The notes beneath the pieces are model-generated. The model was given only the letters and a program-made list of their open reading frames with translations, was not told where the DNA came from and ran no database searches. From Bacteroidales bacterium (GTDB lineage Bacteria; Bacteroidota; Bacteroidia; Bacteroidales; FEN-979): DNA of 64,000 nucleotides. The stretch is from the NCBI GenBank assembly GCA_023229525.1, contig JALNZC010000013.1, positions 17,286 to 81,285 of the forward strand, read 5' to 3'. A program made the position numbers and the translations under genes. Below, piece after piece: positions 29,120 to 45,155 of the stretch (the stretch's first letter is position 1; the number at the start of each line of letters is the position of its first letter).

Positions 29120-29428
29120 ATGAAGAAAACATTTTTTGGTTTAATGGTTTGCGCAACCCTGATGGGAGCCTGCAGTAAGAGTTCCAACAGTTTTGTACCC
29201 GATTGCAGCGGGAGTACAAAATCATTCAGTAATGATGTTTTACCGGTATTTCAAAGTGCCTGTGTGAGCTGTCATTCGCAATATTCAGGTTATTCACAGA
29301 TATCGGCAGCTAAAACTACTATCAGAAGCAAAATCGTTGATGGCAGTATGCCCCCGGGAAATTCATTATCAACTGCACAGAAGAACAATATTGTTTGTTG
29401 GATTGATAATGGCGCTCCCAATAATTAA
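29120..29428 (+). CDS. small lipoprotein with one c-type haem motif (PSCyt1-like)
   Basis: 102 aa with a lipobox (LMGACS), a single CVSCH and a downstream GSMPP. Confidence 0.6.
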   Translation: MKKTFFGLMVCATLMGACSKSSNSFVPDCSGSTKSFSNDVLPVFQSACVSCHSQYSGYSQISAAKTTIRSKIVDGSMPPGNSLSTAQKNNIVCWIDNGAPNN

Positions 29429-30614: not shown

Positions 30615-31502
30615 CTACCGGTTATAGTTTCTTTCGGAATGACATCCCGGGGCGCATGTACCGCCGTTCTCCTGTGATACGAAATGGATGGGCATTTCCC
30701 ATTTACCGAAAGGAACCTTTTCGGCGATCAGTTGTGGGTTTAAGGCTCCGTGGACATTGTGGCAACTGATGCAGGTTCTGCTTTTACTGCCTTGGAGATG
30801 AAGATAATGCAGATTCTGCGTGCCACTCCTGAAACCCGTAGCAGTTCCGGTAGTTTTCAGCAGGAGCAAATCGCTGTTGTGGCAGGTAAAACAGACCAGG
30901 AAGTTTTCCTTGTGTGCTGAAGTATAAATCCCCTCGGGGAATGAACCATTCAGGATGAACGGGTTTGATGATCCGTGGGGCGTGTGACAGGCTGAACATC
31001 CCGGATTGGTTTTTCCACCGTGGAAATAGGTGCTGTTGATCACGTTCTTGCGGATATTCATAATGGGTTTGTTATCGGCGGTGACCGACTTGTTATGGCA
31101 GGTGAGGCAGGTTTTTGTCTCTTCGGCCAGCAGCAGTTTCTTTTCTGCTGATGCATGCGGAGAGTGGCAGTTCATGCAATTCTTCTCAGCAGTCACTGGT
31201 GGATGGGGGTGAGTGGCTTCTTGTGTAGCGGCCTGAATGTCGTCGTGGCAACTGAAGCATAGATCCGGGGTTTGTGCAGCCAGGGAGAAGCCTTTTTCTC
31301 CTTGGGAAGGGTGGGTATTACCGTTAGGCTTATGACAAATTCCGCAATTTTTTACAGCTGCTACATGTTTATACTCAGGTTCCATCAATTTTGAATGACA
31401 TTCGAGGCAATCCTGTGGATTTTTATACGGGACGGAGCTAAATACCAGGTTCAGTCTGGCCATATCAAACACAATAAAGATCATGACCAGGGAGAGTCTC
31501 AT
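30615..31502 (-). CDS. multihaem c-type cytochrome (8 CXXCH + 1 CX3CH)
   Basis: 295 aa with a hydrophobic N-terminus. Motifs are CLECH, CGICH, CFSCH, CMNCH, CLTCH, CSACH, CFTCH, CISCH plus C-terminal CAPGCH. The start overlaps the upstream barrel gene stop (ATGA at 31499-31502). Confidence 0.9.
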   Translation of the reverse strand: MRLSLVMIFIVFDMARLNLVFSSVPYKNPQDCLECHSKLMEPEYKHVAAVKNCGICHKPNGNTHPSQGEKGFSLAAQTPDLCFSCHDDIQAATQEATHPHPPVTAEKNCMNCHSPHASAEKKLLLAEETKTCLTCHNKSVTADNKPIMNIRKNVINSTYFHGGKTNPGCSACHTPHGSSNPFILNGSFPEGIYTSAHKENFLVCFTCHNSDLLLLKTTGTATGFRSGTQNLHYLHLQGSKSRTCISCHNVHGALNPQLIAEKVPFGKWEMPIHFVSQENGGTCAPGCHSERNYNR

Positions 31503-33466
31503 TTCCTGTACCAGTTAAAGTTTCTCACTATTTGAATAAATCCGCCCACATAATTGGTTTGCTCATGGAGATAATCACGCCGGAACACCTCCACGCCAAC
31601 TTTAAAGAATATCTGACGGAAAAGTGTGGTGAACTGGACACGACCGGTTAACAGGTTAAGGTCGATCTGCTGGCCTATTTGTTTACGATAACCGAATTCT
31701 ACGGAAAGAGTACTTTGATGCGCAAACTGGTATCCAACATTCCCGGTCACATCAATGAACTGCTGGCGTGTATTCTCAGCCGTCAGGTTGTAATCGCGCA
31801 TGTTCCCGCTGAGCGAAATGGTAACCTTGTATCCTAAATTTCCCTGCAGCTGTGCCCAATAACGGATAAGACGGTAGGGCACGATCGTACTCTGGTAATT
31901 CTCGAATTCCACACCGCCACTGGCAAACTTGTACTCAAGACGGCAGCCGTAAGTAGTTTGGGTGAAATAGTTCAAGGTAAGGTACTCCGCGGTTGTCAGG
32001 TTTGAATACCCCTGGTCGGCCCACTTGAAATATATCTCAAACAGGCGGTTGAAGAACGACACGCTGGCGTTGATGCATTGAAAATTGACATCATACTGAT
32101 AAGACCCCGGGAGCATGGCAACATAATCAACGTATACGCTCCCTTTATTTGGAATTTGTCCACCCGGCATACGCTGGATTTCCAGGAACGTGTTGCGCTG
32201 GATCAACACATAATCGAAATTGGGCTCATAGATGATCGTTCCGGTAACATCCTTCACAACTACCGAATTGAGATCAATATTGGCCTGGTTTAGCAAGGTC
32301 ATCTGACCGTCAGTAAGCACGTGCTCTTCGTGCAGGATAGGCTGGGGAACAGGTTCACTTGTATGTTTCTGACGTTGCCAATTATAAGTATAACCCAGCA
32401 TCAACCTGCCTTTTAAGGGGATTTTCTTCTCATAGTTTATATTGATACCCGCGATAAGGTTATTCTCTTTATAAAATGTATGACGGATCTGGTTATATTC
32501 CAGCGACAATCCCGAATTGAGGCTTTCGTACAACCGGTGACGCAGCATGGCCCGGATCGCATTCTGATTCATTTCCTGCGAATCCCTGCGGTAATCGTAA
32601 AAGTTATAACTTGTGCTTAAGCTGAAGCGTTTTGGGAGGTTCAGGTTTATGCTTTCATCTACCTGGATCCTGCGAAAAACGTCGGAGCCCCGCTGATCGA
32701 TACCGGAAATTGCTGAGATAAAGCTGTAATTGCGCTTTTTATCGAAGGAAATAGTATTGTTGAGACTCAGGTTATCGGAGATATTCCTTGATTCAGCGAT
32801 GTTTACATCATTCCTTGAATAGTCATTGTGAAAATAAATGAGTTGGCTGTTATCATAAGCAGAAAAGGATTTGTCGATCCGTGCCTGGATGGTTTGCTGT
32901 TGGGTGATGAATGAACGACCGGTAAGGATCTCAGTTTCGTACCATTTCCCCTGTTGGTAAGAGGCCTGGATGGGAAGGATCTTGTTCATCCAGATAAAAT
33001 TACCTCCAAAGTTGATGGTATTTGAGTGGATATTTGATAGGTTTTCACGACTGGTGTATACATTGTTATAGTTGAAAAAACCACTGAAGTTAATGGTCTT
33101 CTGGCGAAAGAAAGTGAGGGTGGCATCCAGTTTTTCCATAGTTCGTACCTCAGCCTGGTCGGGGATGACGAGAAAAAGATCCTTTCCGATAACCGGGTTG
33201 AATTCTCCGCCCAGGTGGAGCGAGATAAAATCAGGATGAATGAAATAACTGTCGGTGTTAAGTAGTATCCCACCATAAAACCGTGAACTTTCTTGGGTGT
33301 TGTAGATCTCGTTGGAATATCCGGCCTGGTAACGGTAATCGGCCCCAAGTTTCACAGCGCCATTTATCGAGTTGAGCGCCCAGAACCTCCGGGAAATGGA
33401 ATAATTCTGGGATAATCCCAGTGCGGGCAAAAGCAGCATTATGCAAAAAAAACGCAAGCCTTTCAT
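31499..33466 (-). CDS. large outer-membrane beta-barrel protein (candidate porin of a porin-cytochrome complex)
   Basis: 655 aa with a signal peptide (MLLLPALGLSQ) and no Cys-haem motifs. Tyr/Asn/Ser/Gly-rich with alternating amphipathic strand-like segments throughout. Sandwiched between two multihaem cytochrome genes. Confidence 0.65.
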   Translation of the reverse strand: MKGLRFFCIMLLLPALGLSQNYSISRRFWALNSINGAVKLGADYRYQAGYSNEIYNTQESSRFYGGILLNTDSYFIHPDFISLHLGGEFNPVIGKDLFLVIPDQAEVRTMEKLDATLTFFRQKTINFSGFFNYNNVYTSRENLSNIHSNTINFGGNFIWMNKILPIQASYQQGKWYETEILTGRSFITQQQTIQARIDKSFSAYDNSQLIYFHNDYSRNDVNIAESRNISDNLSLNNTISFDKKRNYSFISAISGIDQRGSDVFRRIQVDESINLNLPKRFSLSTSYNFYDYRRDSQEMNQNAIRAMLRHRLYESLNSGLSLEYNQIRHTFYKENNLIAGININYEKKIPLKGRLMLGYTYNWQRQKHTSEPVPQPILHEEHVLTDGQMTLLNQANIDLNSVVVKDVTGTIIYEPNFDYVLIQRNTFLEIQRMPGGQIPNKGSVYVDYVAMLPGSYQYDVNFQCINASVSFFNRLFEIYFKWADQGYSNLTTAEYLTLNYFTQTTYGCRLEYKFASGGVEFENYQSTIVPYRLIRYWAQLQGNLGYKVTISLSGNMRDYNLTAENTRQQFIDVTGNVGYQFAHQSTLSVEFGYRKQIGQQIDLNLLTGRVQFTTLFRQIFFKVGVEVFRRDYLHEQTNYVGGFIQIVRNFNWYRK

Positions 33467-33480
33467 CCCTTATTCCTGTT

Positions 33481-34035
33481 TCAGTTTAAAAAATACCGTT
33501 TATTCCCACCATGTGGATTATGACAAGTTGTACATGGCGATTCACCGATCTTCTCATGCTCCGGAGTTGCAAGGATACGGTCTGATTCATGGCAAGTGAA
33601 GCATAGCGCTTGTCCTGTTCGCAAAAGCAATTTTGGGTTCTCCGAATTGTGTGGGCTATGGCATTTGGTACAATTACCGGAGACCACTGGTCCATGCTCG
33701 AATTTCCCGTCATACGCATCATGACACTGATAGCAAAGACCAGGTTGAGGTTCGATCATGTTCCCAGGACGGTTGGGATCGTGACATACCCCGCATTTTT
33801 TAAGGGCAAACGGTGGATGTGCCGGGTGCTTCGATGCAGCAGTATTGGCAGCCAGTTCATTTAACAGGGCGGAATCCGATTTATTTCCGGTCTGTTTTGC
33901 AACCATTTTAACCGAATCATTCTTTTCGGGCACACCGTCGAAGAAGACAGTAAGCATCCTGTGCGAACATCCCAGTAAAAAGGAAAAAATGATCACTATC
34001 AGAGAAAGAGATATGTTTTTTTTTACCGGTGTCAT
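33481..34035 (-). CDS. pentahaem c-type cytochrome lipoprotein
   Basis: 184 aa with a lipobox (FSFLLGCS). Motifs are CGVCH, CYQCH, CTKCH, CFTCH, CTTCH. Confidence 0.9.
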   Translation of the reverse strand: MTPVKKNISLSLIVIIFSFLLGCSHRMLTVFFDGVPEKNDSVKMVAKQTGNKSDSALLNELAANTAASKHPAHPPFALKKCGVCHDPNRPGNMIEPQPGLCYQCHDAYDGKFEHGPVVSGNCTKCHSPHNSENPKLLLRTGQALCFTCHESDRILATPEHEKIGESPCTTCHNPHGGNKRYFLN

Positions 34036-34046
34036 CGTTATGTGTT

Positions 34047-35116
34047 TTATTTCGGGCTGATTGCACCGTACACATTGATCTTGTCGGGTCCGTATTGGTT
34101 GGTTACAAAGATGAGATAGTTAAGATTGTAAGCCTGATCCACATATTTATGGAAGTATTTCAGATTGTCATAATCGATGGTCACCTTTGCCGGAAGCCAC
34201 ATATCACCGGGGCCTTGATAAGGTCCGCCGAAAAAGAGCAGTACGCGACCAGTTTTATCAAAAATCTGCGTATTCTCGAAACTTGCATCCACCACATACA
34301 GGTTCTCTTTTTTATCTACGGCGATACCTTTGGGTCGTGCAAACTGGCCAAGGCCGCTCCCGTTGCTTCCCACAGATGACAAGTATTTCCCATCATGGGT
34401 ATAGGTCTTACATTAAAATCACCGATATCACTTACATAAACCTTATCGGGTGTAACATAAATGTTGGCCGGAGAATAAAGGTAACCAGGCTGACCCTGTT
34501 CGGCGTCAGGGAACGTATAGAGAAGTTCACGGGTATTCTTTTTATAAACGTTGATCCTGTTGTTTTTGATATTGGTTACCCAGATCGTATCGCCGGTCAC
34601 AAAGACATCGGTCGGCTTAAATTTATCGGTCTCGCCAAAAGCGCCTATATAGGTTCCGTCCGCTTCAAAGACAACTACTTGCATTCGAATTCCATCGGCA
34701 ACATATAGTTTTCCGGTATCGTCCACGAAACAATTGAGTGGAAGTTTGAGTTTCCCGTTGCCTATCGGTTCGAAATAGGTGAAGGTATTTTTCTCAAGGT
34801 CGATCACTTCAATGAGACCCATGCCTGTATCACAGATATAGATCTTTCCTCCATGCATAGCAATACCGTATGGTTTTTTAATCGGCTTTACCGGGGATTC
34901 GCCAAAAATGAACCGCGAAAATGCTGATTGTTTACCGGTGCTGTTCTCGGAACTGCTGAAAGAAGTCAGAAACTGGATCCTTGCTGTGTCTGGCGGGGGT
35001 GGGTAGGTAACCACTACTTTAAAGGTGGACGTTTTATGCAAACGCCTCGAGCAACCTGAAAAAAGCAGGAATAGGATTCCCGGGATCAGCAATACGGTAA
35101 GAATTTTTCTGTACAT
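34047..35116 (-). pseudogene. NHL-repeat beta-propeller lipoprotein, interrupted by a 1-nt frameshift (or assembly error)
   Basis: ORFs 34316..35116 and 34047..34382 overlap in different frames. Joined at about 34407-34411 they read ...VYVSDIGDFNV/KTYTHDGKYLSSVGSNGSGLGQFARPKGIAVD..., a continuous NHL repeat paralogous to the 40787..41794 protein. Lipobox LLFSGCS. Confidence 0.7.
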
Positions 35117-35145
35117 GGTTAGCTACGTTTCCCAAAAATGATTAA

Positions 35146-35172
35146 TTGGAGGGGATTAAATGGCCCTTCCAA
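35146..35172 (-). terminator. intra-operon hairpin (attenuator or partial terminator) after the tetrahaem cytochrome gene
   Basis: On the minus strand, TTGGAAGGG-loop-CCCCTCCAA (8/9 paired), followed by TTAATCATTTTT. Lies between the cytochrome stop (35206) and the NHL start (35116). Confidence 0.45.
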
Positions 35173-35205
35173 ATCATTGCTTCAACAGATAAAAATGATA
35201 AAAAT

Positions 35206-35835
35206 TTATTTGTTATGGCAGGTAAGGCAGAGGGCACTGGCGACATTGGTCTTCCGTAGCAGGTGCGCAATTCCGGTTCCGTTGTGTACATTGTGACAGG
35301 ATGCACATTCCAGTTTGTTATTGAACAACATGGTCTGTGAAATGGTTCCGGTACCGATTCCTGAAGGATGGGTAGTAGGATTCCACAGACCGGGGTCGGC
35401 TGCTGCCAGCGCAGCGTCGAAAACAAAGGAGATCGGGTGGTCATTCCGCAGATCAGTTCCCACATTGTTGACCGTTGTGATAAAATGAGTCCCGTTTGTT
35501 GTACCACCGAAGTTTTCGAGGGCTACGGTGCCGTCGTGGCAACTCAGACAGAGTTTCGAACTGCCGCTGGGTTGTGTAATGGTTGCTGCTCCGTTAAATG
35601 TCGGACTGGTGTATAGCTGGAAGGTTGCGGTAGTAGATCTGTGGTTCCATAGCGGAGCATCCGGAATGGTGATATCCGCATTGTGCGGTGTGTGACAGCA
35701 GATGCAAATCTGTTGGGTAGTATTCCAGGTCTGCGCTGAAAAATCGTGAGCAGAACCTACGATGGTTTGCCCTAAACCAACATTAACAAGAAAGAAAAAT
35801 GCCGGCAATGCAGTTAATAGTTTCTTGATTTTCAT
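35206..35835 (-). CDS. tetrahaem c-type cytochrome (secreted)
   Basis: 209 aa with a Sec signal (FFFLVNVGLGQ). Motifs are CICCH, CLSCH, CASCH, CLTCH. Colinear similarity to residues about 20-205 of the 559-aa cytochrome (PLWN, CLSCHDGT.AL, NDHP.SF.(Y/F)DA.LAAAD). Confidence 0.9.
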   Translation of the reverse strand: MKIKKLLTALPAFFFLVNVGLGQTIVGSAHDFSAQTWNTTQQICICCHTPHNADITIPDAPLWNHRSTTATFQLYTSPTFNGAATITQPSGSSKLCLSCHDGTVALENFGGTTNGTHFITTVNNVGTDLRNDHPISFVFDAALAAADPGLWNPTTHPSGIGTGTISQTMLFNNKLECASCHNVHNGTGIAHLLRKTNVASALCLTCHNK

Positions 35836-35936
35836 TTTTAGATTGTTTGTTAGTTTGTTTAATTGATATAATTTGAATTGATTATGAGCTCATTAATGTA
35901 ATTTGACAAAACCATTTTTATACTCCGGTAGGGCGA

Positions 35937-35954
35937 AGTCAAAGATTATGCCAA
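35937..35954 (-). promoter_or_regulatory. candidate sigma-54-type promoter (TTGGCAT-N5-TTTGACT, minus strand)
   Basis: The reverse complement of AGTCAAAGATTATGCCAA has GG/-12 spacing matching TGGCAC-N5-TTGC, except the -12 element reads TTGA. It lies about 100 nt upstream of the cytochrome ATG (35835). A 13/17-identical copy occurs at 41877-41894. Confidence 0.35.
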
Positions 35955-36204
35955 AAACAATAATAATAGGGATGGATGGCTATACGGCTATTATTTTTGC
36001 CCGGATTGAGTAAAAATTATAACAGGACAGTAGTTGTAAATGCCACAAATTTAATTACATAATAAATGTTTTCCAGATTATTTTCATATCCTGGAAGTTT
36101 ATCGTTTTTCTTTGGAAAAACAAGAGATCGAAAGAGTAACCGGAATATAAAATCCGGGTGGGTCAATTCACTCAATCCGGGGTGGGGCAAATTACCCAAC
36201 TGCC

Positions 36205-37584
36205 TCATAGACTGTATTTCTTCATCTTATAACGGAGGGTATCACGGGTAATCCCAAGCAATCTGGCCGCCCGGGTCTGATTTTGGCTGGTCTTTTTCAG
36301 TGCAGTGATGATGGTCTGTTTCTCAATGTCATACAATGATGTGCCTTCGGCGAAGAATCCTCCCACTTCTTCGGATGCACGTTGCAAAGGTTTCTGTTCC
36401 TCTTTAAGTTTCACCATTTCGGCAGGCAGGCTTTCAGCATGGATAATATCGCTTGTTTCAAGAATGACAGCCCGTTCGATAACATTGCGCAATTCCCGTA
36501 TATTTCCAGGCCAGTTGTACATTTCAAGAAGTTGTTTGGCCGCAGGATCGATCATCTGGATATTTTTTCTGAAGCGGGAATTGAAATATCTAAGGAAATG
36601 ATCGGAAAGTAATGGGATATCCTCCGTATGTTCACGCAGTGGCGGGATGATGATGCGGAAAACCGTAAGACGGTAATACAGATCTTCGCGAAAGGTCTTC
36701 TCTTCAATGGAACGTTTCATGTCTTTGTTGGTCGCGGCGATGATGCGGATGTCGACCGGAATATCGGCAGTACCGCTGATCCGGCGGATCACCCTGTTTT
36801 CGATTACGCCGAGAAGTTTCACCTGGGTAGCCTGGTTGATCTCCCCGATCTCATCCAGGAAAACGGTGCCTCCTTCAGCCATCTCGAACAGTCCTTTCTT
36901 AAGTTTTTTTGCATCGGTAAAAGCCCCCTGTTCATGACCGAAAAGTTCGCTCTCCAGCAGTGTTTCGGGGAGCGAGGAGCAATTGATTGTGACAAAGGGC
37001 TTACTGGCCCGGCTGCTTTCGTTGTGGATAGCGTGCGCGAAAAGGTCTTTCCCCGTGCCACTTTCACCCAGCAGCAGAATGGTGGTGGTATTGATCCGGG
37101 CTATCTTCTTCGACAACTGGATGATCTTGAGAATTTCGGGTGAGCGGCCGACAATATGGTCGAAGGTGACTTTTTCCTTGTGTTGCCGCCTGAGCAACTG
37201 AACCTCGTTGTTGACGCTGATCTTCTCCCGGATTATGTCTATAATAGCATAGATTTCCTTGAAGGAAAAGGGTTTGTTTATATATTCCTGGGCCCCGAGT
37301 TTCATTGCCTTGACCGCGGTATCGATCGAACCGTAAGCAGTCATAAAAACAATGTTGGTATCCTCGTGCATGGCCCGGATTCGTGTGATCACCTCCAGCC
37401 CCTGGATACCAGGGAGTTTATTGTCGACAAAGGTAATGTCGGGAAACTGTGATTCAAAGAGCTGCAGCCCCTCTTCCCCGCTCTCGGCGGTAAACACGGA
37501 ATATCCCTGCGCCTTCAATTTTTTTTCAAATGACCAGCGAATCAGCTGTTCATCATCGATCACCAATATTTTCAAAGTTTGCAT
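36205..37584 (-). CDS. sigma-54-dependent response regulator (NtrC family: REC-AAA+-Fis HTH)
   Basis: Receiver (ILVIDDE ... DNKLPGIQG), AAA+ Walker A GESGTGKDL, GAFTGA-type loop (GAFTDA) and a C-terminal HTH (RAARLLGITRDTLRYKMKKY). Confidence 0.95.
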   Translation of the reverse strand: MQTLKILVIDDEQLIRWSFEKKLKAQGYSVFTAESGEEGLQLFESQFPDITFVDNKLPGIQGLEVITRIRAMHEDTNIVFMTAYGSIDTAVKAMKLGAQEYINKPFSFKEIYAIIDIIREKISVNNEVQLLRRQHKEKVTFDHIVGRSPEILKIIQLSKKIARINTTTILLLGESGTGKDLFAHAIHNESSRASKPFVTINCSSLPETLLESELFGHEQGAFTDAKKLKKGLFEMAEGGTVFLDEIGEINQATQVKLLGVIENRVIRRISGTADIPVDIRIIAATNKDMKRSIEEKTFREDLYYRLTVFRIIIPPLREHTEDIPLLSDHFLRYFNSRFRKNIQMIDPAAKQLLEMYNWPGNIRELRNVIERAVILETSDIIHAESLPAEMVKLKEEQKPLQRASEEVGGFFAEGTSLYDIEKQTIITALKKTSQNQTRAARLLGITRDTLRYKMKKYSL

Positions 37585-37620
37585 CTAAAGGTATTGGTTC
37601 ATCCAACAAACGGGAACTTG

Positions 37621-39075
37621 CTAATTTACCGGAAGAGAAATATAGAATGTGCAGCCTTTGTCAGGATTGTTCTCAACCCTGATCTCCCCCTGGTGCATAT
37701 CAATGATCTCCTTGACAATGGCCAATCCAAGACCCGTTCCCTGGGTCCGGGTGGTGTAAAAGGGTTTGAAGATATCCGGCAGTTTGTCCTCAGGAATACC
37801 GATACCGGTATCCCTGACCGCGATTTGTACCTTTTTCCCGGCAGCCGACCAGGAGGTCTCATAAGTGATGGTGCCACGTACATCCGATGCCTGCACTGCA
37901 TTCAAACCCAGGTTCAGCAGCACATTCTCCACCTGTTCCGGGTCGAAATAAAAGAGCGGTATATCTTTGCCCAATTCCACCTTGAAATTAATCTTTTTAT
38001 TGATAGCCTGATTCTCAAGAAAAAAAACAACCGATTTAATAATTTCATTGATGTCGGCTTCCTGTGGATTAAGATCCTTCGAGCGGGAGTAGTTGAGGAG
38101 GTTTGAAACTGCTTTATTCACGCGGTTTGCCTGTCGCTGGATCTCCTCAAGTACCGGTTTATTTTCGGTATCCTTGGTTTCCTCAATAATAATTTCAATG
38201 GCATTCGCTATTCCGGTGATCGGGTTGCGGATTTCGTGGGCCAGCCGGGCCGACATCTCCCCGATAGTGGCCAGTTTCTGTGAAGTCCTGATCTCCTGTT
38301 GATGGTATTTCTGAAGCTCATTCTGTGTCTGCTGGAAATGTCCCACCATTTCGTTGAAACTTTTTCCCAACCGGCCCAATTCGGTTGACTTCGGGATAGT
38401 AAGTCGTTCGTTGAGGTTCCCCTGGTTAATGACATTGATGGCCTTTTGGAACTCAGAAAGCGACTTCCTGACGATCTTGTAATGGAGGGTTAAAACAAAC
38501 CCGAGAACAAGTAAGATCAGGATCACCGTGAAGATAAAGCTGAACTGACGGGTGAAAGCAATGGTGTCGCCCGGGGAGTGCATGGCGAAATCGATTCCGA
38601 TATACCCCAGGATGGGTTTGGTAGATGCATGACAATTATAGCAGGTCGGACTGTTTTTCAGGCGGATGATAGCCCGGGAAAAAGGAACGTTTGCATCCTG
38701 GAATGTCGTCAGGGTGATGTCGTTAGGTAAGGACGCAAGCTTCCGAAGGTTAATGGTATCGAATTCATTCGGATTGAATTGGGAAGGGTATAGCACTTTC
38801 CCATCGGCATCAATTAAATAAGAATGAATAACCTGCCCGTTCTTGTCAAGCTGACGCAGACTTGGTTTGATGATCCGGCCGTCATGCACGGCTACGATCT
38901 GGCCCTTCATCAGAGTGAGTACCGACAAAATATCCTCTTTTGCATTCTCGTAGATCTTTTTGCTGAGGTAATAATTATAGATGTAAAAAGAGAAGAAGGA
39001 CATTACCGTAATGACCACGATGATGGTTGTTACAATTTTAAACCGGAAGGAGGTAAAATTAATTTCTATTTTCAT
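37621..39075 (-). CDS. sensor histidine kinase with a periplasmic domain carrying a c-type haem-binding motif
   Basis: TM1 (IVTTIIVVITVMSFFSFYIY), an extracytoplasmic domain of about 150 aa containing SPTCYNCHAS, TM2 (FSFIFTVILILLVLGFVLTL), HAMP, H-box LAHEIRNPITG and G-box GTGLGLAIV. Confidence 0.9.
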   Translation of the reverse strand: MKIEINFTSFRFKIVTTIIVVITVMSFFSFYIYNYYLSKKIYENAKEDILSVLTLMKGQIVAVHDGRIIKPSLRQLDKNGQVIHSYLIDADGKVLYPSQFNPNEFDTINLRKLASLPNDITLTTFQDANVPFSRAIIRLKNSPTCYNCHASTKPILGYIGIDFAMHSPGDTIAFTRQFSFIFTVILILLVLGFVLTLHYKIVRKSLSEFQKAINVINQGNLNERLTIPKSTELGRLGKSFNEMVGHFQQTQNELQKYHQQEIRTSQKLATIGEMSARLAHEIRNPITGIANAIEIIIEETKDTENKPVLEEIQRQANRVNKAVSNLLNYSRSKDLNPQEADINEIIKSVVFFLENQAINKKINFKVELGKDIPLFYFDPEQVENVLLNLGLNAVQASDVRGTITYETSWSAAGKKVQIAVRDTGIGIPEDKLPDIFKPFYTTRTQGTGLGLAIVKEIIDMHQGEIRVENNPDKGCTFYISLPVN

Positions 39076-39107
39076 TCAATCCTGCATTAAAAAACGTTTT
39101 TTTAGGA

Positions 39108-40787
39108 TCAGTAAGTTTCAGGGTTATGATTTTCCCCATGGCATACAAGCCGGCAGCTGCCATGACGGACCCCGGTATCTGTGAACTGGATGATCCCTCC
39201 GGAAGGACTTACCACAGCGGTATTAAAATTAACGAGGTTGGAGTTGTTCGTTGTCGTGCCGGGACTGCCTATACCATGTGCATCATGGCAGACATTGCAG
39301 GGTGTGCGCTCTTCTACGATATGTAAACGATGTCTCGGGAAGCTATTGATATTGTTGATAATGTTGTTCCGGTTATGACAGGTGTAGCAAAGAGCATAGG
39401 CAGCGGCCGATTCCGTGGTATTATCGGCTGTAAGGTACTGTGCTTTCATGATATGTGGATAGATCGATCCGTGGGGGCCGGCCGGAGAACCGGTACCATC
39501 ACTGGCGTGACAGGCGGTACAGTAAATTACAGTGGAGGCCGTATTGGGTGCGATCAGATTCCCTGTGATCTCCGTATTGTTCCGTGGTCCGACCACCGGA
39601 TGGAACGAGGGGTTAGTCGTGGCAAATTCAAGACGTACATTGTTTTGTACGATAACGCGGGGAGAGGCCGGTGGGGCCATCCCTGGAGTATTGGTATGAC
39701 AACGGTAACAGATCTGGTACTCGTAAACAGCCGGGTTTACCTGACTCCCATTCTGGTCGATCCCTTTTACACCGGTGATAAAGCCATTCACGTTGGGCGC
39801 CACAGCCGTGGTATTGTTGGCCTGGTGGGCATTATGACAGTCGGTGCACTCTACATGGTTTGTGCTCACCAGCGCATTCTCAACAGGGTCGTGAATCCCT
39901 TGGTAGCCATATACATTGTGCTTGTAGGTTTTTGCAGCTTGAGCCTGGATGTTCTTAACTGCCACGTTTCCATTATGGCAATCGAGGCAGTTATTTTCCT
40001 CGGGAAGCCAATCCATCAAACGGAGTTTCCCGGCGGCGGAATGGGGATTATGACAGTTTTCGCACCCATTATCGGCAACTGTAGTATACGGGCTATGGAA
40101 CCAGGGATTGGGGGCGACGCCATTCCAGGTGCTGGTTGAGTTACGGTGGCTTGCAGTAACCCAATTTGCAGGTGTATGGCAAACAAGACAAAGGTTCGAT
40201 GCCTGTGTAGTAGCCACGAGAAAAGCTGAATAGATATTCTTGTGTGGATCATGACAGGAGGTACACTGGAGTTTACCGTTCTCCAACTTTACAGGACCGG
40301 TGAGGGTAGCCGGATTCACCAGTTGTCCGTCGGCGGCTGCGAGTGTAGCATCATAGATAAACGAGAGCGGGTGGTCGTTGGAGATATCCTTGGTGAGGTT
40401 GCTCACCCCAGTAGGCATTGTCGTAACGCCGCCAGCCATGATAATCGGCGTTGTACGGCTGATGATGCTTCCAAGGGCAATGGTACCATCGTGACAGGAG
40501 AGACAGAGGATCGATGCCCCGTCGGGTTGTCCGAGAATAGCCTGTGTAGTGGAACTGGCATAAAGGGTATAGGTTAGTCCCGGGTCAGACCGGTTCCACA
40601 GGGGGTGATCCGGCCGTGAATTATGAGGTGCATGGCAAAAAATGCATATTTCGGATTCTGTAGTTGCTTTGATGGCGCCGGGTCCACTTACCGACAGGTT
40701 ATGCTTTGTGGATACTATGGTTTGTGAATAAACAGCCAGCGGTATCCAGAACAACTGCAGCAGGCTGATCTTCAGTAGTCTAATCAT
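39108..40787 (-). CDS. multihaem c-type cytochrome (11 CXXCH + 1 CX3CH)
   Basis: 559 aa with a Sec signal. Motifs are CIFCH, CLSCH, CTSCH, CLVCH, CENCH, CLDCH, CTDCH, CYRCH, CTACH, CYTCH, CNVCH plus C-terminal CRLVCH. The start overlaps the upstream NHL gene stop (TAATG). Confidence 0.9.
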   Translation of the reverse strand: MIRLLKISLLQLFWIPLAVYSQTIVSTKHNLSVSGPGAIKATTESEICIFCHAPHNSRPDHPLWNRSDPGLTYTLYASSTTQAILGQPDGASILCLSCHDGTIALGSIISRTTPIIMAGGVTTMPTGVSNLTKDISNDHPLSFIYDATLAAADGQLVNPATLTGPVKLENGKLQCTSCHDPHKNIYSAFLVATTQASNLCLVCHTPANWVTASHRNSTSTWNGVAPNPWFHSPYTTVADNGCENCHNPHSAAGKLRLMDWLPEENNCLDCHNGNVAVKNIQAQAAKTYKHNVYGYQGIHDPVENALVSTNHVECTDCHNAHQANNTTAVAPNVNGFITGVKGIDQNGSQVNPAVYEYQICYRCHTNTPGMAPPASPRVIVQNNVRLEFATTNPSFHPVVGPRNNTEITGNLIAPNTASTVIYCTACHASDGTGSPAGPHGSIYPHIMKAQYLTADNTTESAAAYALCYTCHNRNNIINNINSFPRHRLHIVEERTPCNVCHDAHGIGSPGTTTNNSNLVNFNTAVVSPSGGIIQFTDTGVRHGSCRLVCHGENHNPETY

Positions 40788-41794
40788 TACTTTCCTCCGT
40801 TCATGAGTTGAAATACCTGTATTCTCGAATTATAGCTATCAGCAATATAGATCTGGTCGCGATTATCAATATAAATACCAGAGGGCATCCAGAACTCCAT
40901 GTTCCCGTGTCCGCGTGTACCAAAGGTGTATAGTAACTGCCCCTGCGGGTTAAAGATCTGTACGGCGCTGAACAGGGCATCAGCAATATAAATATTGCCG
41001 TAGGAGTCAGTGGCGATCCCTTTCGGACGGGCGAAATCGCCACTGCCGTCACCAGGTTTACCGAACTGAGAGATGAATTCGCCATCAGCGGAAAAGATCT
41101 GAATGCGAAAATTCAAGGCATCCACGATATATACTTTGCCATTCCTGTCGACCCACACTGAGGTTGGATAATTGAATTCACCAGGTGCAGTGCCTCTTTT
41201 CCCGAACCGTTTCAACACTTTCCCATATTCATCCAGCACTGATACCCGGTGGGCATTGGTCTCCACCAACCAGATCCGGTGATCCGACGGCACCCAGGCT
41301 ATCCCTGTAGGCCGGTCGAAAGTGGAGTCGGTAAGCAGTGTGAGCGACTTTTTATCCGGTGTACATAAAAAAATCTTATTATAATAGGAATCGGTGAAAA
41401 GAAAACTATTTTCCTTGAAAGGTGTAATACCTACCAGGGAGGGGAAATTTTTGTACTTTTTATTTCTGAAGTGGGTTATTTCACCCACTTTGTCTTTCAC
41501 CTTGAAGATCACCCCGTTCTCCTGGTCAAGTACATACAAAGAAAGGGAATCCTTTGCAATAACACCTACCGGACGTGTTAGTTCCATTGAGTTTTTTTTA
41601 CCCAGAATGAGTTCGGCGATGCGTGTACCGAGACTGCGTTTTGGTTTTTCATTGGCAAGTGGAGGATATTGAGATATCCAGGCAATATAAGGCGAATCCT
41701 CAACCTTTCGGACAAACTCCTGCGCCCGAGCCTGAAACACGCCACAGGTATAAATTATGATAAACAGGATGATGATTATTCTGTTAGTTTGCAT
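40787..41794 (-). CDS. NHL-repeat six-bladed beta-propeller protein (secreted)
   Basis: 335 aa with a signal peptide. Repeated NHL units, e.g. GEFNYPTSVWVDRNGKVYIVDALNFRIQIF, GDFARPKGIATDSYGNIYIADALFSAVQIF, MEFWMPSGIYIDNRDQIYIADSYNSRIQVF. Confidence 0.9.
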   Translation of the reverse strand: MQTNRIIIILFIIIYTCGVFQARAQEFVRKVEDSPYIAWISQYPPLANEKPKRSLGTRIAELILGKKNSMELTRPVGVIAKDSLSLYVLDQENGVIFKVKDKVGEITHFRNKKYKNFPSLVGITPFKENSFLFTDSYYNKIFLCTPDKKSLTLLTDSTFDRPTGIAWVPSDHRIWLVETNAHRVSVLDEYGKVLKRFGKRGTAPGEFNYPTSVWVDRNGKVYIVDALNFRIQIFSADGEFISQFGKPGDGSGDFARPKGIATDSYGNIYIADALFSAVQIFNPQGQLLYTFGTRGHGNMEFWMPSGIYIDNRDQIYIADSYNSRIQVFQLMNGGK

Positions 41795-41876
41795 CAGATC
41801 CGGGAGGGTTTTTTACAGGTAATCCGGAGATCGTCCGGGTTTCAATTCTTAACAAAATTAGAATTTTGTTGCAACT

Positions 41877-41894
41877 AGTCAAATTTAGTGCCAA
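41877..41894 (-). promoter_or_regulatory. candidate promoter for the NHL-cytochrome-kinase-regulator operon (TTGGCAC-N5-TTTGACT; alternatively a sigma-A -33/-7 promoter)
   Basis: The minus strand reads TTGGCACTAAATTTGACT, about 83 nt upstream of the ATG at 41794. The same TTTG is followed after 19 nt by TAATTTTG (a perfect TAnnTTTG), so a housekeeping promoter is an equally good reading. Confidence 0.35.
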
Positions 41895-41987
41895 ACAATA
41901 GAAATAGCGAAAGGAGAATACGATAAGTCCACAATACAATATTTTATTATCTTTTTCGTACTTTTATCTGGATTGAATATTAAAAAC

Positions 41988-44900
41988 ATGAAAAAAATAC
42001 CTACCCTGCTTTTCTCTTCACAGATGACCCTTTTGCTTTTGATGATCTTTGCCATAGCTATCGGGTCGGCCACTTTCATCGAGGAAAAATTTGACATAGT
42101 TACGGCTCGCCTATTGGTATACGATGCCTGGTGGTTCGAACTTGTGCTGTTGCTTCTCGCCCTCAATTTCATAGGGAATATCAGTCGATATAAGCTTTGG
42201 CGCAGAGAGAAGATATCAATCCTGTTATTTCATCTTGCGTTCATTCTCCTGATCCTCGGAGCAGGGATCACCCGTTACCTGGGTTTTGAAGGGATGATGC
42301 ATATACGGGAAGGGAATTCTTCACGGGTCATATATAGCTCCACTCCCTATCTTCAGGTGAATGCGACCGGGAAGGATTTCGATTTCTCTTTGAATAAACC
42401 CCTTCTATTCAGTGAGATGGTTCCTAACCGGTTCAGTTTTGGATTCGACACCAGGGGGAAGGGAAAGATTTCAGTTTCTTTCCATGATTATATGAAGAAT
42501 GCCGTATCACGGATCAATGAAAATGTAAGGGGAGGTACAACGATTGTTCAGATGGTCCTTGCCGCTTCGGAAGGCAGAGAAACAGTGCTCATCGAAAAAG
42601 GAGAGATTGTGGATCTGGGAAATGCTGTGATCGCGTACGAAAATAACAACCGGAAGGATGCCATCCGGCTTTCGGAAAGAAATGGGAAACTTTTTCTCTC
42701 ATCACCCTCCGGTATCGTGATGTCGTTCATGCATGGTATGGGCAGTACCAGTGATACTACTGTTAATCCACCGGTGACAGATACCATACAGGAATTTAAG
42801 GCAGGTTATATTTATAGTACTCAGGATGTCCTGCTGCTTTTCGTTAAACGATTTACCGGCGCTGAAAAAGAGTTGGTCCGTGGAAAGGCCAATGACCAGG
42901 GTTCCGAGGTGCTTTTCGTGGATGTGGCCTTTGAAGGCAAAACCCGCACTGTTCCTTTGTTCGTCGGCACAGGATACAATACGGCTGTAAAAGAACTCAA
43001 TCTGGATGGGGTTAGAATGAAACTCGCATACGGAAACAAAGAAATTACCTTACCCTTCTCCCTTCAGCTCGACGATTTCATCCTTGACCGCTATGCAGGA
43101 TCAATGAGCCCATCCTCATATGCCAGCGAGGTCACCCTCATCGATAGCGAAAGGAATCTCCGGGAAAAACGGCGGATATATATGAACCATGTGCTTGATC
43201 ACCGGGGCTACCGTTTTTTTCAGTCCTCATACGATATGGATGAAAAAGGGACGGTGCTTTCGGTGAACCACGACCGGGCAGGAACATGGGTCTCTTACGC
43301 CGGGTACATCCTGCTGGCAATCGGTTTCATCGGCACACTTTTCAACAAAAACTCCAGATTTCGCATCCTTAGCAAAGCAATCGACCGGATCCGGTCGGAA
43401 CGGAAGGCAGGGATCATGGTCACCCTTTTCTTCTTCCTTTTTGCCTCTGTTTCCTGCTTTGCCCAGCAAGAAACTGTTCAGCCATACGTCGGGGCCGATC
43501 ATGCGGAGAAATTCGGACACCTGTTGGTGCAGACTTTCGATGGACGTTTTGAACCGATTCATACCCTGGCCTACGATGTGATGCATAAAATTTCACGAAA
43601 GGACCAAATTCACACCGACAAAAAGGGCGATATGGATGCAATCCAGGTTTTCATGGATATGCTTATGGATCCCGAATACTGGAAACACCAGAAGATCATC
43701 TATGTGCGTGAAAAAGCTGTGAGGGATATCCTTGGTGTAGGCGGACAATATGCCTGTTTTTATGATTTTGTCGACCAGCAGTCGAACTACAAACTTTCCT
43801 CCTTTGCTGAAAAAGCCTTCCGCAAGAGACCTGCAGAGCAGAATGCTTTCGATAAGGAAATCATCAAAGCGGATGAACGGATCAACATATGGATGAGCGT
43901 TCAAAACGGTTCATTGCTCAAGATCTTCCCGGAGCAAAACGCGATCAATCACGGGTGGATCAGTTTTGTTGATACATTGGCCCGAGTGCCCCTCACCGGG
44001 AAATTGCGCGATATAAACAGCGATCTTCCCCTGAATCAGTTAGATTATAACAATTTAATGCGTTATTACCTTCAGGCTGTTTATGACGGCGCCCGGACGG
44101 GTGACTATACAAATGCCGACCTCGTGCTGAAGCACCTGGAAAGTACCCAGCGGGAAGGAACCCCCGAAAATCTTTTACCAACCATTTCCAAAATAAATAC
44201 AGAGATATGGTATAATAAATCGCAGATCTTTATAACACTACGGAATATTTACGGAGTACTCAGTCTGTTCCTGCTCGTGTTTGCCTTTGCGGAAAACCTT
44301 CGATCACGCAAGAGCCGTTTCGTTTCCTGGACATTAAATTTACTGACGATTGTGCTCGGTGCAGCATTTTTATACCACACCTGGGGTATGGCGCTCCGGT
44401 GGTATCTCACCGGACATGCCCCCTGGAGTAACGGTTATGAGGCATTGTTGTTGGTCGCCTGGGGAAGTCTCCTGGCCGGATTCTGTTTCATGAAATACTC
44501 CCGGATCACGCTGGCGGCCACAGCAGTACTTGCTTTTATGGTACTAATGACGGCAGGTCACAGCAGTTACGATCCACAGCTGACCAACCTTCAACCTGTG
44601 CTGAAATCCTATTGGCTGATCGTACATGTAGCGGTGATCACCGTAAGTTATGGATTCCTGGCGCTTGGTTTTTTACTTGGGCTGATCAATATGTTCATCT
44701 TTCTTTTCAAAACGAAAATCCAAGCCTTCCGCCTCGACCTGATTATCAGGGAGCTGACCCTGACCAACGAAATGACGCTGATCATCGGAATTGTGCTGGC
44801 GACCATCGGTACCTTTCTTGGCGGTGTCTGGGCCAATGAATCCTGGGGCCGGTACTGGGGCTGGGATGCCAAGGAAACATGGGCGTTGGTCATCGTGATC

Positions 44901-45155
44901 ACCTACGCGATTATCTTGCATCTTAGATTCGTTCCAGGGTTAAAGGGAAATTTTATTTTCAACATAGCGTCAGTGATTGGTTTCGGAAGTGTGATCATGA
45001 CTTTTGTCGGGGTTAATTATTATCTTTCGAAAGGACTTCACAGTTATGCTGCTGACGATAAAAAGGTGTTTCCTTTGTGGGGTTGGGGATTAATTCTGGG
45101 GATAATCTTACTCATGATTGTGGCAGGTTATAGGGAACGTTTGTCGAAGAAATGA
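41988..45155 (+). CDS. ccsBA: fused System II cytochrome c biogenesis protein CcsBA (ResB-CcsA)
   Basis: 1055 aa from the ATG at 41988 (the ORF track begins at TTG 41973). The N-terminal part is ResB-like with TMs and a large soluble domain. The C-terminal part is CcsA-like with the Trp-rich WWD motif WGRYWGWDAKETWALV. Confidence 0.9.
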   Translation: MKKIPTLLFSSQMTLLLLMIFAIAIGSATFIEEKFDIVTARLLVYDAWWFELVLLLLALNFIGNISRYKLWRREKISILLFHLAFILLILGAGITRYLGFEGMMHIREGNSSRVIYSSTPYLQVNATGKDFDFSLNKPLLFSEMVPNRFSFGFDTRGKGKISVSFHDYMKNAVSRINENVRGGTTIVQMVLAASEGRETVLIEKGEIVDLGNAVIAYENNNRKDAIRLSERNGKLFLSSPSGIVMSFMHGMGSTSDTTVNPPVTDTIQEFKAGYIYSTQDVLLLFVKRFTGAEKELVRGKANDQGSEVLFVDVAFEGKTRTVPLFVGTGYNTAVKELNLDGVRMKLAYGNKEITLPFSLQLDDFILDRYAGSMSPSSYASEVTLIDSERNLREKRRIYMNHVLDHRGYRFFQSSYDMDEKGTVLSVNHDRAGTWVSYAGYILLAIGFIGTLFNKNSRFRILSKAIDRIRSERKAGIMVTLFFFLFASVSCFAQQETVQPYVGADHAEKFGHLLVQTFDGRFEPIHTLAYDVMHKISRKDQIHTDKKGDMDAIQVFMDMLMDPEYWKHQKIIYVREKAVRDILGVGGQYACFYDFVDQQSNYKLSSFAEKAFRKRPAEQNAFDKEIIKADERINIWMSVQNGSLLKIFPEQNAINHGWISFVDTLARVPLTGKLRDINSDLPLNQLDYNNLMRYYLQAVYDGARTGDYTNADLVLKHLESTQREGTPENLLPTISKINTEIWYNKSQIFITLRNIYGVLSLFLLVFAFAENLRSRKSRFVSWTLNLLTIVLGAAFLYHTWGMALRWYLTGHAPWSNGYEALLLVAWGSLLAGFCFMKYSRITLAATAVLAFMVLMTAGHSSYDPQLTNLQPVLKSYWLIVHVAVITVSYGFLALGFLLGLINMFIFLFKTKIQAFRLDLIIRELTLTNEMTLIIGIVLATIGTFLGGVWANESWGRYWGWDAKETWALVIVITYAIILHLRFVPGLKGNFIFNIASVIGFGSVIMTFVGVNYYLSKGLHSYAADDKKVFPLWGWGLILGIILLMIVAGYRERLSKK

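Follow-up and report, generated by a model that had tools for sequence, protein, structure and literature searches.

A probable outer-membrane electron conduit of Bacteroidales within a locus akin to the OmcE and Uet clusters

Within a 64,000-nucleotide stretch of a Bacteroidales genome (GenBank assembly GCA_023229525.1, contig JALNZC010000013.1, positions 17,286 to 81,285; hereafter the window), three contiguous genes encode a pentahaem lipoprotein cytochrome, a large β-barrel and a nonahaem cytochrome. The trio closes, on the downstream side, a larger minus-strand locus of ~11 kb, which also encodes a tetrahaem homologue of the nanowire subunit OmcE, an undecahaem cytochrome and two NHL β-propellers. 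All three genes are real and are likely to make up an outer-membrane electron conduit, and we lean slightly towards the fuller proposal that they serve as the outer-membrane core in an OmcE/Uet-type locus devoted to extracellular electron transfer, with the nonahaem cytochrome wiring the barrel. A sequence-only reading of this DNA had likened the trio to the conduits of the Mtr, Pcc and Ext type. The likeness stands as far as the composition, the MtrA-like nonahaem, the barrel fold and the synteny of the trio (~59 of 62 loci) are concerned, but the closest kin appear to be OmcE/Uet-type loci and the barrel shows no sequence relationship to the MtrB/PioB family.

Layout of the trio and nature of its proteins

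Gene content, synteny, the fold of the barrel and the likeness of the nonahaem to MtrA were all computed, as was the homology that links the tetrahaem, the nonahaem and the propellers to proteins of OmcE loci. The coordinates and junctions of the trio match exactly the contiguous layout that had been read from the letters: 14 nt separate the pentahaem gene from the barrel gene, and inspection of the DNA shows that the junction between the barrel and nonahaem genes reads AGGAAATGAGAC, an ATGA stop/start overlap. Motif counts were equally consistent with the earlier description, with a lipobox (LLGC) and five CXXCH motifs in the first product, a signal peptide and no haem motif in the barrel protein, and eight CXXCH plus a CAPGCH in the third product. 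Because the pentahaem and nonahaem proteins match the Pfam family Paired_CXXCH_1 with E-values of 1.8e-28 and 7.8e-32, respectively, the haem assignment of both cytochromes is far beyond chance. The barrel sequence is 100% identical to a deposited protein of a Bacteroidales metagenome-assembled genome (MAG).

The AlphaFold2 model of the barrel, built on a 50-sequence alignment, is confident (pLDDT 89.6, pTM 0.68) and contains 29–30 strands according to DSSP, 18 long ones in residues 27–384 and 11–12 more in residues 442–653. Strand-like sequence does not extend along all 655 residues, as had been supposed, since a small β-rich domain of ~57–70 residues (about residues 385–441) is inserted between strands 18 and 19. 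This insert is the best-conserved stretch of the barrel family, is kept in relatives that are ~20% identical, and matches nothing significant in Pfam, NCBIfam or the PDB. The turns that connect the strands are only 2–6 residues long on both faces, long pore-closing loops are absent, and the model has no usher-like periplasmic domain at either the N- or the C-terminus. Fewer than ~18 strands would have left a pore too narrow to thread a cytochrome; with its 29–30, the barrel is wider than the 26-strand MtrB, and by standard barrel geometry 30 strands would give a Cα diameter of ~5.5–6 nm, similar to the ~5-nm pore reported for the 28-strand UetC. A pore so wide and without long loops must be filled by something. 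The barrel had also been described as lacking the usual terminal aromatic residue. It is true that the aromatic is not the last residue, but F650 is the conserved terminal Phe, nearly invariant in the family, and stands before a short basic tail: 29 of the 50 family members terminate exactly at this residue (...R[KR]F), and the clade of the window protein bears an extra 4–5 basic-tail residues past it.

Searches with the barrel returned little. It matches no Pfam family at E ≤ 0.1 and has a single non-significant match in NCBIfam (a phage tail tube model, E 0.012), while comparison with PDB sequences, using either the single sequence or the 50-sequence profile, gave nothing significant (an amidase, E 0.26–0.5) and the family profile does not recover the MtrB chain 6r2q_B. 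Neither the Pfam MtrB_PioB nor the NCBIfam TIGR03509 model is matched, which places the barrel outside the MtrB/PioB family. In Foldseek searches of the PDB the matches are generic large barrels (TonB-dependent receptors, SusC, LptD). MtrB has the highest TM-score among the matches listed, in line with the MtrB-type structure that the first reading envisaged, but that score is only 0.44. The family itself is large: a threshold of E ≤ 1e-3 gives 2217 representative clusters, and one of E ≤ 1e-30 still gives 721. Two distant relatives of the barrel (P0405 and P0407) carry the precomputed Pfam accession PF27730.1, a recent family that may already cover part of the barrel superfamily.

Membership of no known family and generic structural matches are also what can be said for the view that the barrel is a conventional porin or transporter whose gene happens to lie beside cytochrome genes. 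We find this scarcely credible in the light of how the gene is kept in other genomes. A scan of one genome per species, queried with an alignment of 12 closer barrel sequences, gave 74 barrel loci from Bacteroidales, Flavobacteriaceae, Cyclobacteriaceae, Saprospiraceae, Ignavibacteria ('Chlorobiota') and Calditrichota. An upstream haem-protein open reading frame (ORF) adjoins the barrel in 59 of 62 loci, encoding five haems in 43 of them and nine in 13, and a downstream multihaem cytochrome adjoins it in 59 of 61. The place between two cytochrome genes is kept in ~95% of at least 60 loci from several phyla; moreover, the barrel and nonahaem genes overlap, and the model has neither the N-terminal plug of TonB-dependent receptors nor long loops.

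The nonahaem cytochrome resembles MtrA. The eight CXXCH motifs, the C-x3-CH motif and nine further His are invariant in 39 homologues, which fits nine bis-His haems. For its AlphaFold2 model (pLDDT 77.7), MtrA (6r2q_A) is the only significant fold match in the PDB (E 1.6e-4, TM-scores 0.41/0.45, 23% identity), and MtrA also comes first when the family profile is compared with PDB sequences (E 1.6e-13). Against NCBIfam the protein stays below the cut-off of the DmsE/MtrA model TIGR03508 (72.1 versus 192.2 bits). The only NCBIfam hit of the trio that bears on the Pcc/Ext modules is below threshold too, to the GSU2203 decahaem family (46.7–53.7 bits, cut-off 325). The homologues have ordinary signal-peptidase-I signal peptides and no lipobox. 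The conserved module of the family is the C-terminal ~210 residues, and the longer homologues reach 25 CXXCH motifs through N-terminal paired-CXXCH repeats; an MtrC-like C-terminal surface domain was considered for these longer forms and rejected, the extra haems being those N-terminal repeats.

The pentahaem lipoprotein, in turn, carries a characteristic peptide, [FLI][DE]GV[PSD] (typically FFFDGVP), found in 57 of 59 orthologues and preceded within 20 residues by a Cys in 56 of the 59. The residues that follow the lipid-anchor Cys have the consensus S-P-K-T, and an acidic residue occurs at positions +1 to +4 in 8 of 56 orthologues. Surface lipoproteins of Bacteroidota reportedly bear an acidic export signal right after the Cys, as Lauber and colleagues are said to have described in 2016. 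Lacking this signal, the pentahaem lipoprotein would face the periplasm, and it is therefore more likely to be tethered there than exposed like MtrC or OmcB. It matches PF22113 below threshold (16.8 bits, cut-off 30) and, with five haems, is not a member of the MtrC/OmcA family.

This orientation bears on a more classical arrangement, a sandwich of the Mtr/Pcc/Ext kind in which the pentahaem lipoprotein would be surface-exposed like MtrC, OmcB and ExtC, the nonahaem would enter from the periplasm and the barrel would clamp both. A lipoprotein cytochrome, a barrel and a cytochrome with a signal peptide do match the composition of those systems, and the pairing of a large barrel with an elongated multihaem wire is shared with MtrCAB (6R2Q). 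We nevertheless judge the sandwich very unlikely: the remaining 48 of the 56 orthologues lack the acidic residue, other products of the locus would suit the outside position better (the tetrahaem, and the undecahaem with its domain like MtrC/MtrF II/IV), and the barrel is no MtrB/PioB family member. The locus further differs from MtrCAB in that it has no MtrC-type decahaem lipoprotein and its wire has nine haems. Among the Geobacter systems, ExtEFG likewise has a pentahaem lipoprotein, next to a barrel and a multihaem cytochrome of the periplasm; the Pcc/Ext barrels are smaller, with roughly 18–22 predicted strands, and we know of no OmcE-like subunit or NHL propeller in Pcc/Ext clusters. When composition rather than sequence is compared, the trio agrees with the three parts of these modules, namely the periplasmic multihaem cytochrome, barrel and lipoprotein multihaem cytochrome of OmaB-OmbB-OmcB, ExtABCD, ExtEFG and ExtHIJKL (PMC4282303, PMC12133095).

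Kinship with OmcE and Uet loci

Among known systems, the locus appears to stand nearest to the OmcE cluster of Geobacter and Desulfuromonas and to the Uet cluster, ahead of Mtr, Pcc and Ext. The tetrahaem cytochrome of the locus matches OmcE of Geobacter sulfurreducens (PDB 7TFS, chain 7tfs_A) over its full length (E 1.7e-27), as well as chain 9yuq_N of the 16-chain entry 9YUQ (E 7.7e-24). In an alignment of 54 rows (52 homologues from Bacteroidota, Ignavibacteria and Calditrichota, hereafter FCB, together with the window protein and OmcE), the eight haem-ligand His (H30, H51, H133, H184 and the His of the four CXXCH motifs) are each at least 98% conserved and aligned with His of OmcE. A ninth His, H65 (in PLWNH), is kept in 93% of the rows; Arg replaces it in OmcE (7TFS), in 9YUQ and in the undecahaem cytochrome of the same locus. 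Residues 11–205 of this undecahaem also match 7tfs_A (E 1.6e-33).

Minimal OmcE clusters have recently been described as containing two multihaem cytochromes, two β-propeller lipoproteins, OmcE, a large β-barrel and an adjoining resB/ccsB; OmcE homologues were reported from five phyla, with Bacteroidota, Ignavibacteriota, Calditrichota and Omnitrophota not among them, and the OmcE of D. soudanensis forms bundles (bioRxiv 10.1101/2025.10.22.684050). For a direct comparison, the OmcE sequence was rebuilt from the PDB alignment and used to fetch 80 metagenome loci. The Geobacter-type loci among them have the order resB, ccsB, a 9-haem cytochrome, an 8-haem cytochrome, a propeller lipoprotein, OmcE, (a second propeller) and a barrel. 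Four proteins of the window find their counterparts there: the nonahaem matches the 9-haem cytochrome (E 1e-51 to 1e-57), the paralogous pentahaem lipoprotein matches the same 9-haem protein (E 1e-29 to 1e-34), the second NHL protein matches the propeller lipoproteins (E 1e-38 to 1e-45) and the tetrahaem matches OmcE (E 1e-18 to 1e-29). Matches of the nonahaem and pentahaem to the 8-haem cytochrome are weak (E 1e-10 to 1e-15), and the NHL lipoprotein next to the trio is homologous to propellers of both OmcE-type and Uet-type loci. Common to the window and to OmcE clusters are thus the OmcE-like tetrahaem, two NHL propellers, a 9-haem cytochrome, a large nearby barrel and a neighbouring resB/ccsB. 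The window locus adds the undecahaem, the pentahaem lipoprotein and a two-component regulator, and it has neither the 8-haem cytochrome nor the glycosylation genes of the Geobacter-type cluster; its barrel has 655 residues, compared with 746–769 in the Geobacter-type loci.

The second relative is the undecahaem electron transfer (Uet) cluster, found in Ca. Tenderia electrophaga, Tenderiales and Gallionella (bioRxiv 10.1101/2022.05.06.490989; PMC10734462). In Ca. Tenderia it comprises a tetrahaem, a peptidyl-prolyl isomerase (PPIase), a 28-strand barrel, c7 trihaems, a cupredoxin, two NHL proteins, an undecahaem and CcsAB, and it is proposed to work in electron uptake (bioRxiv 10.1101/2022.05.06.490989). 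Compared with this published description, the window shares the tetrahaem, a barrel of the ~28-strand class, the two NHL proteins, the undecahaem and System II maturation. Positions 30615–45155 of the window encode no PPIase (UetB), trihaem c7 (UetD/E/G) or cupredoxin (UetF), and where Uet has these the window has the pentahaem lipoprotein and the MtrA-like nonahaem. Two metagenome loci, judged Uet-type by gene order only (L138:7249-19548 and L151:7295-19534), match the published order: NHL, OmcE-like tetrahaem, SurA-like PPIase, large barrel, c7 trihaems, two NHL and undecahaem. Since the tetrahaem at this position is OmcE-like, the Uet tetrahaem would itself be an OmcE homologue. The NHL proteins and the start of the undecahaem of these two loci are homologous to those of the window (E 1e-45 to 1e-50 for the second NHL protein). 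On this gene content the type of locus seen in the window is a hybrid, which has the nonahaem in common with the Geobacter type and the undecahaem in common with the Uet type. Barrels of the window's own family adjoin OmcE homologues in three further metagenome loci (L118-L120), always together with an NHL protein and an undecahaem.

Looser parallels exist elsewhere. Desulfovibrio ferrophilus clusters multihaem cytochromes with NHL β-propellers (DFE_0448-0451 and DFE_0461-0465) in a setting of extracellular electron exchange (PMC5815863, PMC9769857); the likeness is by description only, and unlike the window locus these clusters are reported to have no porin. In Bacteroidota, the Bacteroidetes_1 bioanode cluster, a putative cluster for extracellular electron transfer flagged as uncharacterised, groups multihaem cytochromes around one β-barrel (Ouboter et al. 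2021, PMC8258643). That it is the same system was considered and rejected, its 426-residue barrel being unrelated (0.2% in hhalign); its neighbours are cytochromes with C-terminal membrane-spanning extensions, not OmcE-like or NHL proteins.

The wider locus and its recurrence

The features of the locus are collected in Table 1. In the direction of transcription the order is NHL, undecahaem, kinase, sigma-54 regulator, tetrahaem, NHL lipoprotein and trio.

Table 1 Features of the locus, numbered from the first letter of the window
Feature	Coordinates	Strand	Length	Remarks
Nonahaem c-type cytochrome	30615..31502	(-)	295 aa	8 CXXCH + invariant CAPGCH
Outer-membrane β-barrel	31499..33466	(-)	655 aa	29-30 strands; insert at ~aa 385-441
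Pentahaem lipoprotein cytochrome	33481..34035	(-)	184 aa	Lipobox LLGC; FFFDGVP just past anchor
NHL-repeat β-propeller lipoprotein	34047..35116	(-)		Pfam NHL; lipobox; frameshifted
Tetrahaem cytochrome	35206..35835	(-)	209 aa	OmcE nanowire subunit homologue
Sigma-54-like -24/-12 element TGGCAT-N5-TTTGA	35939..35953	(-)		~105 nt upstream of tetrahaem gene
Sigma-54-dependent response regulator	36205..37584	(-)		Pfam Response_reg, Sigma54_activat, HTH_8
Sensor histidine kinase	37621..39075	(-)		Single CXXCH in periplasmic loop
Undecahaem cytochrome	39108..40787	(-)	559 aa	11 CXXCH + one CX3-4CH
Second NHL β-propeller	40787..41794	(-)	335 aa	Pfam NHL, E 2.6e-26
Sigma-54-like element TGGCAC-N5-TTTGA	41879..41893	(-)		~85 nt upstream of NHL/undecahaem operon
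ResB-CcsA fusion, System II cytochrome c maturation	41973..45155	(+), divergent	1060 aa	Pfam ResB, Cytochrom_C_asm

The undecahaem scores 45.4 bits against PF22113 (cut-off 30), which marks a region like domain II/IV of MtrC/MtrF. Neither the tetrahaem nor the undecahaem has a lipobox, though both carry signal peptides, and Pfam and NCBIfam scans found no sorting domain of the type IX secretion system (T9SS) in either, so some export route is needed for them to leave the cell. The gene of the NHL lipoprotein is split into ORFs of 266 and 111 residues by a 1-nt deletion near 34410, called by DNA alignment with two related loci (L001 and L002); the orthologous lipoproteins are encoded by one intact ORF of 356-380 residues. 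The ResB-CcsA fusion matches the NCBIfam CcsB model (E 3.9e-48).

The kinase carries its CXXCH (CYNCH, at about residue 143) in a loop between two membrane segments, and every orthologous kinase inspected has exactly one such motif, which suggests a putative periplasmic haem-c redox sensor. The TGGCAT-N5-TTTGA element also occurs upstream of the tetrahaem gene in three related loci (L002, L003 and L004). Position and this conservation lend weak support to a role of the two sigma-54-like elements as operon promoters; over the whole window the number of occurrences of the pattern is not above chance. Scans for sigma-70 promoters and terminators likewise did not rise above shuffled controls, with models that do not include the promoter types of Bacteroidota.

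Beyond the trio, much of this arrangement recurs among the FCB loci. The tetrahaem lies within 3.5 kb of the barrel in 48 of 53 loci, and 37 of 42 long FCB loci encode a homologue of the undecahaem. All seven fully mapped loci have the NHL lipoprotein placed between tetrahaem and small cytochrome, and six of them have the kinase and regulator upstream; the sigma-54 response regulator is syntenic in L001-L004, L040 and L069. Overall, the order tetrahaem, NHL, small lipoprotein cytochrome, barrel and long cytochrome recurs in ~60 loci of Bacteroidota, Ignavibacteria and Calditrichota as well as in Omnitrophota-like relatives. The barrel family extends to a Candidatus Omnitrophica MAG, and the module is also found in Omnitrophota-like and unassigned contigs; the genes of the distant relatives run from the tetrahaem through NHL, small cytochrome, barrel, NHL and undecahaem to a further cytochrome. 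The only cultured carrier among the 74 barrel loci is Carboxylicivirga marina N1Y132 (L069), which has the full cluster.

Several observations concern individual loci. In C. marina the cytochrome downstream of the barrel has 954 residues and 24 CXXCH motifs. One Bacteroidota MAG contig (L020:800-13120) carries the whole module (tetrahaem, NHL, pentahaem, barrel and cytochrome) in two tandem copies. Immediately upstream of a distant relative of the locus lies a gene for a NapC/NirT-family cytochrome (L077:2160-3689), a candidate quinol dehydrogenase that would link the module to the quinone pool. In the window itself, the stop of the ResB-CcsA gene overlaps by 4 nt the start of a gene for a recombinase-domain protein (45152-46405, plus strand), a possible boundary of a mobile island. 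On the opposite strand and directly beyond the downstream end of the locus, 29120-29428 (plus strand) encodes a 102-residue monohaem lipoprotein cytochrome with weak matches to c551/cbb3-type proteins. The remainder of the window holds housekeeping and efflux genes.

A proposed electron path and its significance

What occupies the barrel, which way the lipoprotein faces, whether filaments form and in which direction electrons flow are matters of inference. In the mechanism that we propose, the ~30-strand barrel would house the MtrA-like nonahaem in its lumen and so carry electrons across the outer membrane; the nonahaem is put forward as the partner because its fold and profile are MtrA-like and its gene is translationally coupled to that of the barrel by the ATGA overlap. 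The pentahaem lipoprotein, on the periplasmic face, would feed or drain this wire, and the OmcE-like tetrahaem and/or the undecahaem would be its partners outside the cell. The two NHL propellers might act as assembly or scaffold factors, and the haem-sensing kinase and sigma-54 activator would control expression.

As for direction, flow is likely to be outward in fermentative Bacteroidales, towards Fe(III), humic substances or partner cells, although conduits can reverse. That the module instead works inward, drawing electrons from Fe(II), reduced minerals, cathodes or partner cells as has been proposed for Uet, strikes us as distinctly unlikely. The hosts are Bacteroidales, Ignavibacteria and Calditrichota MAGs, from groups that are largely anaerobic heterotrophs, and the window contains no carbon-fixation or high-potential oxidase genes. 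On the other side stand the tetrahaem, NHL proteins and undecahaem that the window has in common with Uet-type loci, along with the link between the D. ferrophilus cytochrome/NHL clusters and electron uptake (PMC5815863).

The width of the barrel and its insert give more weight to a different assignment, in which the barrel would be an usher-like secretion or anchoring pore for the tetrahaem and/or the undecahaem, gated by the insert, while the pentahaem and nonahaem would stay behind as periplasmic donors. We regard this as somewhat unlikely, and it has a good deal to recommend it. Like the conserved β-rich domain between strands 18 and 19, the plugs of chaperone-usher systems are set between strands of the barrel, in their case on the periplasmic side; a 30-strand lumen is wider than a single MtrA-like wire requires; and a pore would give the tetrahaem and undecahaem the export route that they need. 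The large barrel of OmcE/OmcS regions has, moreover, been proposed to work 'as a secretion or anchor', a porin-mounted nanowire being favoured (bioRxiv 10.1101/2025.10.22.684050). Against a secretion pore speak the resemblance of the nonahaem to MtrA and the translational coupling between its gene and that of the barrel. The barrel has no usher-type periplasmic terminal domains and matches FimD only weakly in Foldseek (rank 24, TM-score 0.29), and the locus encodes no ATPase or chaperone, NHL proteins aside. The two assignments may also overlap, if the anchored cytochrome carries current through the pore.

A bolder extension of the conduit proposal, which we think rather unlikely, is that the OmcE-like tetrahaem polymerises on the cell surface and that the undecahaem acts as a base or tip adaptor that plugs the filament into the nonahaem-wired 30-strand barrel, in a machine common to the FCB group. 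The undecahaem is cast as the adaptor because its N-terminal domain is OmcE-like and has the same N-terminal His-bearing arm. In the same preprint it is speculated that a protein with nine His would be well suited as a filament 'stopper' (bioRxiv 10.1101/2025.10.22.684050). Given this idea and the ninth conserved His of the window protein, polymerisation of the tetrahaem is not to be assumed.

Several points weigh against the conduit proposal as a whole. The barrel belongs to an undescribed sequence family, and its structural score against MtrB is low. Profile alignment detects no relationship to the other barrels: the hhalign probability is 0.9% for the Geobacter-type OmcE-locus barrel, 0.17% for the Uet-type barrel of L138/L151 and 1.1% for a Zoogloea MtrB/PioB sequence, the Geobacter-type barrel profile has no match in the 74 FCB loci, and comparison by hidden Markov models and by profile-profile alignment with Geobacter-type and Uet-type barrels gave no signal. 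Homology to these two types of barrel may still exist at the level of the fold. The insert could be an usher-like plug, and the nonahaem as occupant is a guess. The signal peptide of the window nonahaem is atypical, with Asp and Arg within the hydrophobic stretch, and the frameshift in the NHL lipoprotein gene may be an assembly error or a real pseudogene. The ninth His of the tetrahaem, absent from the filament-forming OmcE, may affect polymerisation; no T9SS sorting domain accounts for the export of the tetrahaem or undecahaem; and no inner-membrane quinol dehydrogenase was found in the window.

Most of what is known of cytochrome nanowires and porin-cytochrome conduits (PCCs) comes from Geobacter, Shewanella and a few Proteobacteria, and 'putative novel PCCs' of Bacteroidetes have been noted only vaguely before (PMC6344600). 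A literature search linking OmcE with Bacteroidota brought up nothing substantive; its coverage was incomplete and a prior description is possible. The present comparison extends the OmcE-centred set (an OmcE-like subunit, NHL propellers and a nonahaem) well past the phyla on record, to Bacteroidota, Ignavibacteria and Calditrichota, where it is common, and as far as Omnitrophota-like genomes. The large barrels of OmcE-centred loci are of at least three kinds, among which no relationship can be detected by sequence. Since barrels so different stand beside a conserved set, we argue that the barrel is an exchangeable housing, the conserved core being OmcE and the propellers.

The way in which nanowires pass through the outer membrane and are fixed to it is an open question. 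No anchor, initiator or terminator protein was found in OmcE operons (bioRxiv 10.1101/2025.10.22.684050). The full cluster of the cultured C. marina N1Y132 makes these questions testable. Should the filament proposal be true, the locus would represent the first nanowire system in Bacteroidota and offer a concrete candidate for the anchor, initiator or terminator of OmcE-type filaments. If the module is functional, abundant Bacteroidota of sediments and groundwater would exchange electrons with minerals, humic substances or partner cells.

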